Of a DNA stretch of 62,395 nt, positions 28,497 to 31,452 are shown one piece after another. Position 1 is the first letter of the stretch; each line of letters starts with the position of its first letter. The notes under the pieces were generated by a model. That model was given only the letters and a program-made list of their open reading frames with translations. It was not told where the DNA came from and did no database searches. This DNA is from Candidatus Dormibacteria bacterium (GTDB lineage: Bacteria > Chloroflexota > Dormibacteria > Aeolococcales > Bog-877): positions 1 through 62,395 of the forward strand of contig JBOHUH010000017.1 of the NCBI GenBank assembly GCA_050733915.1. The letters are read 5' to 3'. The translations under genes and the position numbers were made by a program.

Positions 28497-29180
28497 CTAC
28501 GGGCGAGGCGGGGCCGCCCCGCCGACCTCGGCCTCGCCCGTCGCGGTCAGTAGCACCACCCGGCCAGGACCCCTGACCACCCACTTCCCACCGTCCCAGC
28601 AGAGCCCGGTGGACTCGTCGATCCCCACCACCTCATGCTCGCGGGCCAGCTCATGGGCCACCTCGGCCCAGCGCCCCTCGGCACTGTTCCAGTGAGGCAC
28701 CACCACCTGCTGGACCAGGCGAAGACCGCCACCCAGGGCGAAGCTCGCTCCGGGGCGCAGGTAGTCGTCTGCCAGGATCATGGCACCGGCACTGGAGCCG
28801 GCCAGAGGGACGCCGGCGCGATAGGCGGACTGCAGCGCCGCCCCTGCCGGGGACCCGGCGAGAACCCCGCCCGCGGCGGCCGGGTCGCCGCCACAGAGAT
28901 AGATCGCCGCCGCCCCTTTGAGCTGCTCCAGCAGCCCCGGGTCTCGGGCGTCCGCCTGGGTCTGGATCTGGCAGCCCTCCACCGCACCACCCAGGCCCTC
29001 GAAATGGGCCGCAGCCCAGGCCACCTGGGTCTGGGGGATGTCCTGGGCGGCCGTGGTGACCACCGTCACCACCTTGCGGGAGGCCCGCGCCAACCACCAG
29101 CTGTCGGCCGCCGCTGCGCCCTGCTGCCACTCGTTGCCGCCCAGGAGGAGCAGGGTTCTGACCCGCGTCGAGGCGGTCAA
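28497..29180 (-). CDS. Peptidase S51 / cyanophycinase-like (class I glutamine amidotransferase-like fold)
   Basis: IYLCGGD and the nucleophile-elbow-like PLAGSSAGAMIL, followed by VVPHW. Confidence 0.75.
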   Translation of the reverse strand: MTASTRVRTLLLLGGNEWQQGAAAADSWWLARASRKVVTVVTTAAQDIPQTQVAWAAAHFEGLGGAVEGCQIQTQADARDPGLLEQLKGAAAIYLCGGDPAAAGGVLAGSPAGAALQSAYRAGVPLAGSSAGAMILADDYLRPGASFALGGGLRLVQQVVVPHWNSAEGRWAEVAHELAREHEVVGIDESTGLCWDGGKWVVRGPGRVVLLTATGEAEVGGAAPPRP

Positions 29181-29283: not shown

Positions 29284-31452
29284 GTGCTGCGGCTTCACGA
29301 CACCATGAGCCGAGAGGTAAGGCCGGTTCAGCCGGGTGAGCCTCCCCTGCTGCGGATGTATAGCTGCGGTCCCACCGTCTACCGCTCGGTGCACATCGGC
29401 AACCTGCGCACCTATCTGATGGCCGACTGGATCAAACGGGCCGCCCGGGCCCAGGGCTGGCGGGTCCTCCACGTCAAGAACATCACCGACGTGGGTCACA
29501 TGCGCCAGGAGATGGCCGAGCGCGGCGGTGACAAGGTGATCGCCGCGGCCTTGGCCGCGGGGCGCACCCCCCAGGAGATCGCCGCCGAGTTCGAGGCGGA
29601 GTTCCACCAGGCCGAGGCGCTGCTGGGCATCGAGCCCGCCGACCGATTCCCGCGTGCCACTGATCACATCCCCGAGATGATCGCACTGGTGGAACGGCTC
29701 CTGGGGAGGGGCCTGGCCTACGCGGTCGACGGCACCGTCTACTTCGACACCGCCGCGGAGTCGACCTACGGACAGCTCTCGGGCAACTCCCTGGAGCAGC
29801 TGCAGCAGGCGGCCGGGGCGGAGCCCGACCCGGCCAAGCGCCATCCCGCCGACTTCACCCTGTGGCGCCAGGCCGAGCCCGGCCGCCAGCTGATGGTTTG
29901 GGACAGCCCCTTCGGCCGAGGCTACCCGGGCTGGCACATCGAGTGCTCCGCGATGGCCATCGCCTACCTGGGTGAGGAGGTGGACCTGCACACCGGGGGC
30001 GTCGACAACATCTTCCCCCACCACGAGGACGAGCTGGCCCAGAGCCAGGGGGCGACCGGTAAGCGGTTTGTGCGCCACTGGGTGCACGGTCAGCACCTGC
30101 TCGCCGACGGGGTCAAGATGGCCAAGTCCCAGGGCAATGTCTACACCCTGGGTGACCTCGTCGAGCGCGGCTTCGACCCCCTCGCCTTCCGCTACCTCTG
30201 CGCCACGGTGCGATACCGCAGCCGGCTCAACTTCACCCTCGCCTCCCTGGCGGCGGCGCAGCGCGGTCTGCAGCGCCTGCGCCGGTTGGCCGCGGGCCCC
30301 AACGGCGGCGAGGACGGCGCCCGGGTGGCCGAGCTGAGCCGGGAGTTGCAAGAGGCCTTCGAGAACGACCTCGACGTGCCCCGAGCCCTGGCACTCACGT
30401 GGAGATTCGCCAAGGCCAAGGGGACCAACGGGGCGACCCGCCGGGCCGGCCTGCTCCTCGCCGACAGCTGGCTGGGCCTGGCCCTCGGCCGTGAGCCTGC
30501 GGCCCTCTCCGAGAAGGGCGGGTGGTGGAAGCTGGCCCAGCAGAGAGCGGCACAGCGCGCCGAGCGCGCCTTCTCCGAGGCGGACTCGCTGCGGGGCGCG
30601 CTGCTGGCCCGGCAGGTGGTCCCGGAGGACGCCCGGGAGCGCACCAGCTACCGCCCGGCCACCGCCCTGGATCGCCGTCAGGGGCTGATCTCCTCCCCCC
30701 TGGAGGTACCCGACCAGCGCGCCGCCGAAGACCTAGTCGAGGTCTCGGTGAGCCTGGTCAGCAATGACCACCCGGAGGACCTGCAGCGCTGCGTGGCCAG
30801 CATCCGACGCCACCGCAACGGCCATTCCGGCGAGATCCTGATTGTCGATAACGACACCCCCGGGGGCGGGACCGCCCTCGACCGGCTGGCCCGCACCGAT
30901 CCAACGATCCGGGTCTTCCACGCCGACCACCAGCTGGGCGAGGGCGCCGCCCGCAACGTTACCCTGCGGGCCGCCCGGGGCTCGGTAGTGCTGCTCCTGG
31001 ACACCGGAGTCGAGCTGACTGGGGACTGTTTCGGCCCGCTGCTGCAAGCCCTTCGCGACGAGCGGGTGGGAGCGGTGGGGCGCTGGGCCGCGGTGAGCCA
31101 CGACCTGCGCGAGTTCCAAGACTCCGACGATGAGGAGGTCGACGCAATCGACGGCTACTGCCTGGGCTTCGCGCGGGGGCGGCTGCGCCAGGTGGGGTTG
31201 CTCGACGAGCGTTACCGTTTCTACCGCATGCTCGACTTCAACTTCTCGCTCACCCTGCGGGCCGCCGGGCTCAGCCAGCGCCGCCTCCCCGACCTTCCGG
31301 TGGTGATGCACCATCACCGGGGCTGGGAGGAGACCGATCCCGACGAGCGGGAGCGGCTCAGCCGGCTTAACTTCCGGCGCTTCTTCGAACGCTGGCACCA
31401 CCGCCCCGACCTGCTCCTGGCCCCCAGTCCCGAGCCCGCCCCCCACCGCTGA
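29284..31452 (+). CDS. cysS: Cysteine--tRNA ligase fused to a C-terminal GT2-type glycosyltransferase domain
   Basis: The N-terminal ~455 aa is a complete CysRS: Zn/Cys site YSCGPTVY, HIGN (VHIGNLRTY), GWHIECSAM, GGVDNIFPHHEDE, KMSKS variant VKMAKSQGN, ENDLDVPRAL and the usual C-terminal helical tail. From about aa 487 (nt ~30742) a GT-A/GT2 pattern begins: VSVSLVSNDHPEDLQRCVASI...EILIVDNDTPGGG...VVLLLDTG. It is one uninterrupted 722-codon frame. Confidence 0.9.
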   Translation: MLRLHDTMSREVRPVQPGEPPLLRMYSCGPTVYRSVHIGNLRTYLMADWIKRAARAQGWRVLHVKNITDVGHMRQEMAERGGDKVIAAALAAGRTPQEIAAEFEAEFHQAEALLGIEPADRFPRATDHIPEMIALVERLLGRGLAYAVDGTVYFDTAAESTYGQLSGNSLEQLQQAAGAEPDPAKRHPADFTLWRQAEPGRQLMVWDSPFGRGYPGWHIECSAMAIAYLGEEVDLHTGGVDNIFPHHEDELAQSQGATGKRFVRHWVHGQHLLADGVKMAKSQGNVYTLGDLVERGFDPLAFRYLCATVRYRSRLNFTLASLAAAQRGLQRLRRLAAGPNGGEDGARVAELSRELQEAFENDLDVPRALALTWRFAKAKGTNGATRRAGLLLADSWLGLALGREPAALSEKGGWWKLAQQRAAQRAERAFSEADSLRGALLARQVVPEDARERTSYRPATALDRRQGLISSPLEVPDQRAAEDLVEVSVSLVSNDHPEDLQRCVASIRRHRNGHSGEILIVDNDTPGGGTALDRLARTDPTIRVFHADHQLGEGAARNVTLRAARGSVVLLLDTGVELTGDCFGPLLQALRDERVGAVGRWAAVSHDLREFQDSDDEEVDAIDGYCLGFARGRLRQVGLLDERYRFYRMLDFNFSLTLRAAGLSQRRLPDLPVVMHHHRGWEETDPDERERLSRLNFRRFFERWHHRPDLLLAPSPEPAPHR

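Follow-up and report, generated by a model that had tools for sequence, protein, structure and literature searches.

The window, a 62,395-nucleotide stretch of a Candidatus Dormibacteria genome (GCA_050733915.1, contig JBOHUH010000017.1), carries at 29284..31452 on the forward strand an open reading frame that runs through 722 residues without an internal stop. It encodes a cysteinyl-tRNA synthetase (CysRS) followed by a short linker and a GT2 glycosyltransferase domain. The features of this gene are as follows, with residues numbered on the 722-aa protein.

29284..31452, + strand: whole fusion gene (CysRS, linker and GT2), 722 codons plus stop, GTG start; AF2 model with pLDDT 88.8 and pTM 0.85
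29284..30261, + strand: CysRS catalytic domain (Rossmann plus CP), aa 1-326; PF01406, with Zn/Cys ligands C28, C221, H246 and E250
29392..29403, + strand: HIGN (aa 37-40), in place of the class-I signature HIGH; conserved in 92 fusions
29494..29526, + strand: subtype-specific insertion GHMRQEMAERG after TDV, aa 71-81; low pLDDT in the AF2 model
30115..30129, + strand: KMAKS (aa 278-282), in place of KMSKS; K278, M279 and K281 invariant
30262..30519, + strand: helical stem, or anticodon-binding helical bundle, aa 327-412; the least conserved part
30520..30669, + strand: CysS_C alpha/beta anticodon-binding mini-domain, aa 413-462; R421, R425, F430, D434, R437 and D449
30670..30735, + strand: linker with the conserved motif SSP.EVP, aa 463-484, ~22 aa; from alignment and AF2 secondary structure
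30736..31419, + strand: GT2 / GT-A domain, aa 485-712; conserved R502, G552, N558, D573, E577, D581, D651, H676 and H678
31420..31452, + strand: C-terminal tail, short and without conservation, plus the stop codon; AF2 pLDDT <50 at aa 719-722

The database version of the protein (P0001) uses a start that gives 698 aa. The GTG start of the 722-aa form appears the better choice because homologues conserve its first 24 residues. Fusions with the same frame, a length of ~700-750 aa and the SSP.EVP linker motif recur in independent assemblies; the junction is therefore genuine, and an assembly or frameshift artefact at this point is ruled out. The CysRS-GT2 fusion is a real, conserved gene. An earlier note, made from the sequence, had proposed this in-frame fusion while flagging a possible missed stop or frameshift at the junction, and its proposal holds: the reading frame is uninterrupted, and both fused domains exceed their HMM cut-offs, with Pfam tRNA-synt_1e (PF01406) matching aa 18-326 at 302 bits and Glycos_transf_2 (PF00535) matching aa 497-615 at 49 bits against a cut-off of 23.3. 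The sizes it gave need revision on the basis of the AF2 secondary structure, from ~30 to ~22 aa for the linker and from ~235 to ~228 aa for GT2. A literature search for a description of a CysRS-GT2 fusion found none, in agreement with the same note.

The CysRS half scores 359.7 bits on the NCBIfam cysS model TIGR00435, above the cut-off of 340, with aa 2-455 covering model positions 1-462 of 466; fusions from other genomes reach 353-448 bits. Its residues C28/C221/H246/E250 align to C28/C209/H234/E238 of the E. coli enzyme and are invariant in 92 fusions, among which CGPTVY (C28), HIGN (37-40) and KMAKS (278-282) are conserved as well. The pattern H[ILV]GN is present in every fused or module-adjacent CysRS. 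The GHMRQEMAERG insertion is missing from the stand-alone CysRS paralog of the same genome and is common to the Borrelia CysRS 3SP1. Structurally, the full AF2 model agrees best with the CysRS-tRNACys complex 1U0B (Z 49.1, residues 1-459 of the model against 1-461 of the chain). From these signatures the fused CysRS is complete and predicted to be catalytically intact, a genuine tRNA-ligase subtype defined by HIGN/KMAKS and the Borrelia-type insertion. The score above the cut-off and the invariant ligands and signatures bear out the earlier claim of a complete CysRS, and the motifs quoted with it (CGPTVY, HIGN, KMAKS, VDN and LLLDTG) are all present. The DALR-type tail assigned to it is not: Pfam reports no DALR_2 at the C-terminal end, and the domain there is of the CysS_C type (PF23493) by homology.

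The fused enzyme is not the only CysRS of its host. Since all 11 genomes checked hold another full-length CysRS besides the fusion, the fused CysRS is an accessory paralog. In this genome, the stand-alone gene that the earlier note had thought worth looking for lies on contig C90 and scores 449 bits on the cysS models, against 360 for the fusion. In Limnocylindria, the HIGN/insertion subtype is the sole full-length CysRS, and this subtype is therefore a genuine housekeeping enzyme type. Of 10 genomes with the fusion, 8 also have short MshC-like CysRS paralogs, and a tree places these and the fused CysRS of the same genomes in different clades. At one locus (f13), the genes between such a short CysRS-like gene and a GT2 module encode an unrelated acyl-CoA dehydrogenase, FTR1 and rhomboid.

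The MshC-like paralogs bear on the function first proposed for the fusion, a thiol route combining an MshC-like cysteine ligase, a glycosyltransferase and a PIG-L deacetylase. In its broader form, cysteine activation and glycosylation would yield a mycothiol- or bacillithiol-like thiol or a cysteinylated glycoconjugate, with PIG-L acting in trans. The predicted cysteine-activating site is intact, and a PIG-L gene does lie ~5 kb upstream, as the earlier note had stated; in one Chloroflexota relative PIG-L is immediately downstream of the fusion, with a gamma-glutamyltranspeptidase gene also nearby, and the window holds close by genes for UDP-GlcNAc synthesis (GlmU-like) and PRPP synthetase. A variant fusion (G068) has even lost the CysS_C anticodon reader. 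The MshC model TIGR03447, however, gives the fusion only 247 bits, short of its cut-off of 485.1, and MshC structures superpose on model residues 1-401 only, whereas in the fused half the tRNA anticodon apparatus is retained in full. The separate MshC-like clade could already serve such a pathway. PIG-L does not behave as a conserved partner and was rejected as one: searches with the PIG-L protein of the window (tblastn/blastp) placed it within ~10 kb of the fusion in 2 of 17 loci, the two adjacent proteins share just 29% identity, and this 2.2-Mb genome has four PIG-L genes. No MshC pathway context (GT4 MshA, PIG-L MshB, GNAT MshD) recurs among neighbours at the loci across families, and GT2 retains the anticodon reader even where any cysteine-activating domain is absent. 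The route as first proposed is thus not borne out, nor is the pathway link drawn from the neighbouring PIG-L gene, and a thiol or cysteinylated glycoconjugate as the product is quite improbable.

The anticodon reader itself is well preserved. In an ungapped alignment, residues R421/R425/F430/D434/R437/D449 of the fusion correspond to R423/R427/W432/D436/R439/D451 of the E. coli enzyme, where R423/R427/W432/D436/R439 have roles in anticodon contact (PMC12684709, PMC13449415). Across the 92 fusions, and likewise across 30 modules of both fused and free type, these positions are either invariant or conserved at 90% or more. Judged from this alignment, the fused CysRS keeps every E. coli anticodon-contact position and is predicted to bind the anticodon. 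A profile of the module matches residues 414-459 of 1li5, the C-terminal domain of solved CysRS structures, and Pfam CysS_C (PF23493) is detected in 20 of the 30 modules; a phmmer search of the anticodon region alone against the PDB returned nothing useful.

The architecture extends well beyond this locus, as the earlier note had suggested checking: more than 100 protein clusters show it, and of the 121 genomes sampled from the phylum 15 have it, among them Dormibacteria and other Chloroflexota. A CysS_C motif directly precedes GT2 in 72 of the 73 GT2-family genes examined, whether fused or free-standing (~310 aa). The evolutionarily conserved unit is therefore the combination of CysS_C anticodon reader, linker and GT2, present either fused to CysRS or as a free ~310-aa protein. 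The link to CysRS recurs in other arrangements: in G029 the module lies upstream of, and overlaps the start of, a complete CysRS that has its own anticodon domain, with CysS_C still on the module, and in family f35 the module and CysRS are convergent or divergent neighbours. For many free modules, no CysRS gene lies within 6-8 kb. Free-standing modules are present in the cultured Dictyobacter (D. vulcani, D. alpinus) and Ktedonosporobacter (K. rubrisoli). A locus search with a narrower module alignment gave matches only in Limnocylindria-like MAGs. Protein-atlas clusters are automatically named 'CysS anticodon binding / GT2', and databases label the fused genes 'cysteine--tRNA ligase' and the free modules 'glycosyltransferase' or 'hypothetical protein'.

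The GT2 domain is equally well defined. PF00535 matches 30 of 30 modules at 49-51 bits (cut-off 23.3), and the AF2 model of the module has a pLDDT of 92.5. Its fold matches PcManGT, GalNAc-T1, K4CP, WrtF and SpsA at Z 18-20 with Foldseek E-values of about 1e-12 to 1e-13, including Z 20.4 to PcManGT (6YV7) and 18.5 to SpsA, and it aligns to K4CP at the DxD/ED/His positions. The replacement of a canonical DxD by LLLDTG, which the earlier note had pointed out, is a property of the whole family: D573 is invariant, the second Asp is Gly or Ser throughout and never Asp, and a canonical DxD is absent from the GT2 family members examined. The VDN motif (D522) is conserved in 92 fusions; D522, the first uridine-binding Asp, varies in free forms. 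The domain is not basic (median pI 5.9), being acidic overall and with no RNA-binding signature. The degenerate D-T-G/S motif and the unconserved first nucleotide-binding Asp of the free forms would suit a catalytically dead GT2 that gives a redundant CysRS an appendage for structure, oligomerisation or localisation. Such a domain would hardly be expected to conserve D573, E577, D581, D651, H676 and H678 at 87-100% in fused and free forms that share only ~30-45% identity, nor to persist as an independent gene in many lineages. Non-DxD sites can also be active, as in the GT27 fold relatives, which bind Mn2+ through one Asp and histidines. E577, D581, H676 and H678 may stand in for the canonical DxD, and of the explanations considered here an inactive GT2 has the slimmest chance.

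An active glycosyltransferase delivered to tRNA-Cys is our best reading of the locus, held tentatively and at close to an even chance. CysS_C would dock on the GCA anticodon of tRNA-Cys and thereby deliver GT2 to that tRNA, and GT2 would use a nucleotide-sugar donor to place a sugar within the anticodon arm or close to it. Where CysRS is fused to the module, it would bind, and probably charge, the same tRNA-Cys. GT2 is probably aimed at tRNA-Cys because it accompanies the anticodon reader even when free-standing, and we infer that this tRNA is its acceptor. The complete CysRS, the retained anticodon contacts, the CysS_C-GT2 association in 72 of 73 genes, the recurring gene arrangements and the conserved GT-A core all point in this direction. 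A precedent exists in mammals, where the glycosyltransferases QTGAL and QTMAN modify the anticodon nucleoside Q34 of tRNA-Tyr and tRNA-Asp (PMC11755703). In its fullest form, the proposal would make the CysS_C-GT2 module the first tRNA glycosyltransferase of bacteria, one that owes its specificity for tRNA-Cys to a reader borrowed from a synthetase and that generates a new sugar nucleoside in the anticodon arm. Its fusion to a dedicated CysRS paralog, in Dormibacteria and many other Chloroflexota, would then unite modification and charging on one enzyme. This fuller version we would put somewhat below an even chance. Against a tRNA-Cys target stand the missing second DxD Asp, the variable D522 of the free forms and the loss of CysS_C in G068, together with the non-basic GT2, an ordinary tRNA-Cys in carriers and a lack of tRNA-modification neighbours.

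The last two points come from the genomic context. All-versus-all clustering of ORFs from 17 fusion loci and 75 Limnocylindria free-module loci yielded no cross-family partner, and the gene context of the loci examined contains no tRNA-modification partner genes. Neighbours are shared only locally within lineages: f6 has a GT4 glycosyltransferase gene that overlaps the fusion at its 3' end, this window and f9 have Peptidase_S51, and f23 has a YqeY/LON-domain gene. The genomes compared each have one ordinary tRNA-Cys(GCA) gene, near-identical in carriers and in one non-carrier, and a special tRNA-Cys in carriers is therefore rejected. The window contains no tRNA genes, and a tRNA-Cys gene was not found in its own assembly either, probably because that assembly is incomplete.

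The unremarkable tRNA-Cys of the carrier genomes, the acidic GT2 with nearest folds among ordinary sugar-, lipid- or peptide-acting GT-A enzymes, and the GT4 overlap in f6 would also fit a GT2 that acts on a small molecule, a protein or an envelope precursor. Binding of tRNA-Cys by CysS_C would then be regulatory or serve as a scaffold, for example by coupling glycosylation to how abundant or how fully charged tRNA-Cys is. No partner or pathway gene, however, was found to be conserved across families, and the base-specific contacts are strictly retained in free modules, which substrate targeting explains at least as well. No earlier case in which an anticodon reader acts as an allosteric sensor on a glycosyltransferase is known to us. 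A non-RNA substrate is unlikely on balance, while the fallback offered in the earlier note, a moonlighting or regulatory appendage, is a live rival.

A different target on the same tRNA is the cysteine of Cys-tRNA-Cys, which GT2 would S- or N-glycosylate as a pretranslational amino-acid modification. The joining of CysRS, a glycosyltransferase and a tRNA-Cys reader in one protein agrees with this scheme, as does the existence of GT2-family enzymes that S-glycosylate peptide cysteine (SunS-type glycocin enzymes). Its geometry is less favourable: GT2 adjoins the anticodon reader, at the opposite end of the L-shaped tRNA from the aminoacylated 3' end, and judging from tRNA geometry and the architecture of 1U0B, a ~310-aa free module bound at the anticodon could hardly reach that end. 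The many free modules distant from any CysRS gene also fit poorly, and modification of the charged cysteine is, in our estimate, highly improbable.

If GT2 does act on tRNA-Cys itself, in or near the anticodon arm, the family would add both a novel class of tRNA-modifying enzyme in bacteria and a novel modification of tRNA. It would also illustrate clearly how the anticodon-binding domain of an aminoacyl-tRNA synthetase (aaRS) can be redeployed as a portable targeting device. The presence of the free module in cultured Ktedonobacteria makes this hypothesis directly testable. The analysis also corrects the annotation of the fused genes and free modules and reveals three distinct CysRS-derived genes in many Chloroflexota: housekeeping, GT2-fused and short MshC-like.

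Compared with known systems, the CysRS half is closest in type to the HIGN/insertion CysRS (PRK14536/PRK14534 type; Borrelia burgdorferi 3SP1), with which it shares the full domain set, the Zn/Cys ligands, HIGN, KMAKS and the insertion after TDxG. It differs in having ~260 extra residues (linker and GT2) after the anticodon domain and in being an extra paralog in 11/11 genomes, with cysS scores below those of the stand-alone copy. The E. coli CysRS-tRNACys complex 1U0B superposes on the fusion model over residues 1-459 (Z 49), with the anticodon contacts all kept. MshC (TIGR03447; 3C8Z, 8HFM), the Cys:GlcN-Ins ligase that acts in mycothiol synthesis, has a similar CysRS-derived, cysteine-activating catalytic domain and superposes on model residues 1-401 (Z 45), but at ~410 aa it lacks the anticodon-binding alpha/beta domain that the fusion has, and the fusion lacks a conserved GT4/PIG-L/GNAT context. 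The nearest functional analogy may be QTGAL (B3GNTL1) and QTMAN (GTDC1), anticodon-loop nucleoside glycosyltransferases for specific tRNAs (PMC11755703). Those enzymes are eukaryotic and act on queuosine-34 of tRNA-Tyr/Asp, whereas tRNA-Cys (GCA) has no Q. To our knowledge, neither of them has an aaRS-derived anticodon reader, and no further tRNA-directed glycosyltransferases are known. GluQRS/YadB, which lacks an anticodon domain, glutamylates Q34 of tRNA-Asp, and LysX is a LysRS fused to MprF that uses Lys-tRNA as the donor for lipid aminoacylation. Both share with the fusion the concept of an aaRS-derived module recruited for tRNA modification, or joined to a transferase so as to channel a tRNA-linked activity, but they differ in domains and chemistry, and neither has a glycosyltransferase. 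Finally, the GT-A enzymes PcManGT (6YV7), SpsA (1H7L), the chondroitin polymerase K4CP (2Z86) and the GT27 ppGalNAc-transferases align with the fusion at G..ARN, the first DxD Asp, the 'ED' Asp and the C-terminal His. Relative to a generic GT2, the fusion family has Gly or Ser for the second DxD Asp and carries an N-terminal tRNA anticodon reader in place of a membrane, lectin or polymerase module.

The fusion gene and its neighbours are arranged in the window as follows:

28497-29180, minus strand: Peptidase_S51 gene (cyanophycinase/PepE-like), immediately upstream of the fusion and divergent from it
29284-31452, plus strand: fusion gene, GTG start, 722 aa
31465-33591, minus strand: CNNM/CorC-type gene followed directly by recO, downstream of the fusion

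The fusion frame is uninterrupted. Pfam places a class-I CysRS catalytic domain at residues 18-326 (302 bits) and Glycos_transf_2 at residues 497-615 (49 bits, cut-off 23.3), and there is no G+C shift across the CysRS/GT2 junction. The coordinates and motifs that an earlier note assigned to this gene are borne out by the reading frame and by alignments of homologues. The database copy of the protein (P0001, 698 aa) begins at Met25 (window position 29356), 24 codons after the GTG at 29284; because homologues conserve the 24 residues ahead of Met25 (MLRL..T..R), the GTG is the likelier start. A search of 5.8 billion proteins revealed more than 100 clusters of ~700-750 aa with PF01406 and PF00535, whose sole database annotation is 'cysteine--tRNA ligase'. 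They come from separate assemblies, with identities of 65-78% in Dormibacteria and about 50% elsewhere in the Chloroflexota. The same architecture in independent assemblies rules out an assembly artefact as the source of the fusion. The full fusion occurs in 15 of 121 sampled genomes of the phylum, in five families, and the GT2 family, fused or free, in 101 of 401; the first tally includes unpublished genome G038 and the second G344; each count shifts by one without them, and none of the conclusions rests on either.

The CysRS half is of the real tRNA-ligase type and is not MshC-like. The cysS equivalog TIGR00435 matches residues 2-455 end to end (NCBIfam, 359.7 bits, cut-off 340), and two successive alignments, of 27 and 92 fusion proteins, show no variation in the Zn/cysteine ligands C28, C221, H246 and E250 or in HIGN and KMAKS. 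An ungapped alignment to E. coli CysRS covers the C-terminal 50 residues of this half and pairs R421, R425, F430, D434, R437 and D449 with E. coli R423, R427, W432, D436, R439 and D451, the last of which we take to be an anticodon-contact position. In the E. coli enzyme, Arg423, Arg427, Trp432 and Asp436 are reported to contact G34, and Arg427, Trp432, Asp436 and Arg439 are positions re-engineered for altered anticodon specificity (PMC12684709, PMC13449415). The best structural match of the whole-protein AF2 model (pLDDT 88.8, pTM 0.85) is the CysRS-tRNACys complex 1U0B (Z 49.1 over 442 residues, model residues 1-459); alignment of MshC structures is limited to residues 1-401.

The second, stand-alone cysS about which the earlier note had asked exists on another contig (C90) of the window's genome. 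Its 476-aa product reaches 449 bits against TIGR00435, shares 40% identity with the fused half and does not contain the 11-residue insertion (GHMRQEMAERG after TDV) present there. Because Borrelia CysRS 3SP1 shares an insertion at this position, sequence comparison assigns the fused half to the PRK14536/PRK14534 subtype. A separate full-length CysRS (448-508 bits) was found in all 10 additional fusion-bearing genomes of good quality, which represent seven families; the fused CysRS is always an extra copy in the 11 genomes checked. In a quick maximum-likelihood tree of 41 CysRS-like sequences, rooted at the midpoint, all 14 fused halves form one clade (SH-aLRT 97), sister (support 99) to HIGN/insertion-type stand-alone CysRSs; among these are copies next to free modules and, from two Limnocylindria genomes, the one full-length CysRS that each encodes.

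The rival reading of the earlier note is a thiol pathway, in which an MshC-like Cys ligase would act with the glycosyltransferase and PIG-L. Against such a ligase, the fusion scores 247 bits on the MshC model TIGR03447 versus a cut-off of 485 (NCBIfam), its anticodon residues are kept, and the short MshC-like genes fall in a separate clade (support 99) on the canonical-HIGH side of the tree. PIG-L was rejected as a conserved partner: it lies within about 10 kb of the fusion in 2 of 17 loci, the two proteins are 29% identical, and the window's genome has four PIG-L genes. Candidate Cys ligases for a thiol are short paralogs (~400-420 aa) without an anticodon domain, found in eight of ten Chloroflexota genomes that bear the fusion; these paralogs carry HLGH and KMSKS and cover the whole MshC model with 374 bits, below the same cut-off:

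G111:C1:5444068-5445180, short CysRS-like paralog
L025:6303-7562, short CysRS-like paralog
six others

Such a paralog was not found in the window's 83%-complete genome or in family-mate G384.

The GT2 half alone, as query of the phylum, recovers many stand-alone copies in open frames of ~300-450 aa, and in the G058 copy Pfam detects PF23493 CysS_C ahead of GT2. We examined 73 family members, 37 fused (a CysRS catalytic-domain match in the same frame) and 36 free; the free count takes in some long open frames that lack this match. The CysS_C mini-domain, or reader, lies directly upstream of GT2 in 72; the sole exception is the G068 fusion (L028:8278-10371), a long branch in the CysRS tree, from which the ~50-aa mini-domain is precisely deleted. 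Most readers carry R-x3-[RK]-x4-[FWYH]-x3-D-x2-[RK], one with Leu at the aromatic position. Pfam recognises PF23493 in 20 of the 30 modules aligned, and the module profile matches solved CysRSs in their C-terminal domain (3TQO, 4.9e-8; 1LI5, 7.5e-6).

Module arrangement varies by lineage: fused, overlapping, neighbouring or unlinked. In G029 the GT2 lies upstream of the CysRS gene; this module keeps its own reader even though it runs into the start of an entire CysRS that has an anticodon domain itself. Within family f35, module and CysRS lie on opposite strands separated by ~570-600 nt (G277, G221, G381), converge and overlap (G285) or are ~1.5 kb apart (G333). About 65 of the best 150 representatives (50% identity, 1.84 billion proteins) span reader and GT2, most of 290-350 aa (free) and about nine of 700-820 aa (fused). 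Among cultured bacteria, Dictyobacter species and Ktedonosporobacter rubrisoli encode free modules, annotated as 'hypothetical' or 'GT2'; when the Limnocylindria module profile was run against all species, only MAGs matched. Many Ktedonobacteria have a free module with the variant reader motif R..LLRRKGQY..AD.LK, in which Lys replaces the final Arg (f23, Ktedonobacteria):

L032:9664-10632, variant-reader free module
L033:9518-10477, variant-reader free module
L070, L071 and L076, variant-reader free modules

Several Ktedonobacteria genomes hold this module besides the fused gene (two GT2-family matches per genome), a pairing that could reflect two steps or two targets.

Folded together, GT2 and the mini-domain (pLDDT 92.5) are predicted to adopt a regular GT-A fold, with Foldseek E-values of ~1e-12 to 1e-13 to ppGalNAc-T2, WrtF and K4CP and Z-scores of 20.4 to PcManGT, 20.0 to GalNAc-T1, 19.3 to K4CP and 18.5 to SpsA. 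The first Asp of the K4CP DCD/DSD motifs aligns with D573, the Asp of its 'ED' region with D651, and a His with H676. One rival holds that the GT2 is an inactive appendage: the second Asp of DxD is replaced by Gly/Ser throughout the family, and D522, the first uridine-binding Asp, varies in free forms; R502, G552, N558, D573, E577, D581, D651, H676 and H678 are conserved in fused and free forms alike. A GT27-like Mn site built from one Asp and histidines is a possible rationale for the missing Asp. A long His-rich tail (repeats such as HxHEHxHWPDHxHxHPH), seen in neither the window's protein nor the free modules, ends fused proteins of f9, f23 and f39 and looks like a metal-binding extension:

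L016:8558-9754, His-rich-tail fusion
L019:8630-9745, His-rich-tail fusion
L022:8594-9739, His-rich-tail fusion

No neighbour gene family recurs across families among the fusion loci and Limnocylindria free-module loci. Peptidase_S51 also overlaps the fusion 3' end in one f9 genome (L016:7807-8571) and lies ~5 kb off in two others; this proximity may be chance. In f6, a GT4 (GT-B) gene overlaps the fusion stop codon by 4 nt (e.g. L011:7506-8795 in G027), an arrangement suggestive of an operon; in f9 a related GT4 is found ~6 kb from the fusion. Four carriers and one non-carrier each have a single, ordinary tRNA-Cys gene, and its CUGCAAA loop is identical in all five. ARAGORN found no tRNA-Cys among the 41 tRNA genes of the window's 83%-complete assembly, and made one odd 'tRNA-???(gc)' call there.

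These facts fit a tRNA-Cys-targeted glycosyltransferase, which would find its tRNA through a borrowed CysRS anticodon reader; in the window, such an enzyme would be joined to an intact CysRS paralog dedicated to it. By charge, the GT2 part is not basic. One rival reading gives it an acceptor other than RNA and makes tRNA-Cys its regulator. Another rival has it modify tRNA-bound cysteine; from tRNA geometry, a free module of only about 310 aa whose reader is placed at the anticodon end would more plausibly target the anticodon arm than the aminoacyl end. Full-text literature searches turned up neither a CysRS-GT2 protein nor one joining an anticodon domain to a GT; the only known tRNA glycosyltransferases identified there are mammalian QTGAL and QTMAN (PMC11755703).
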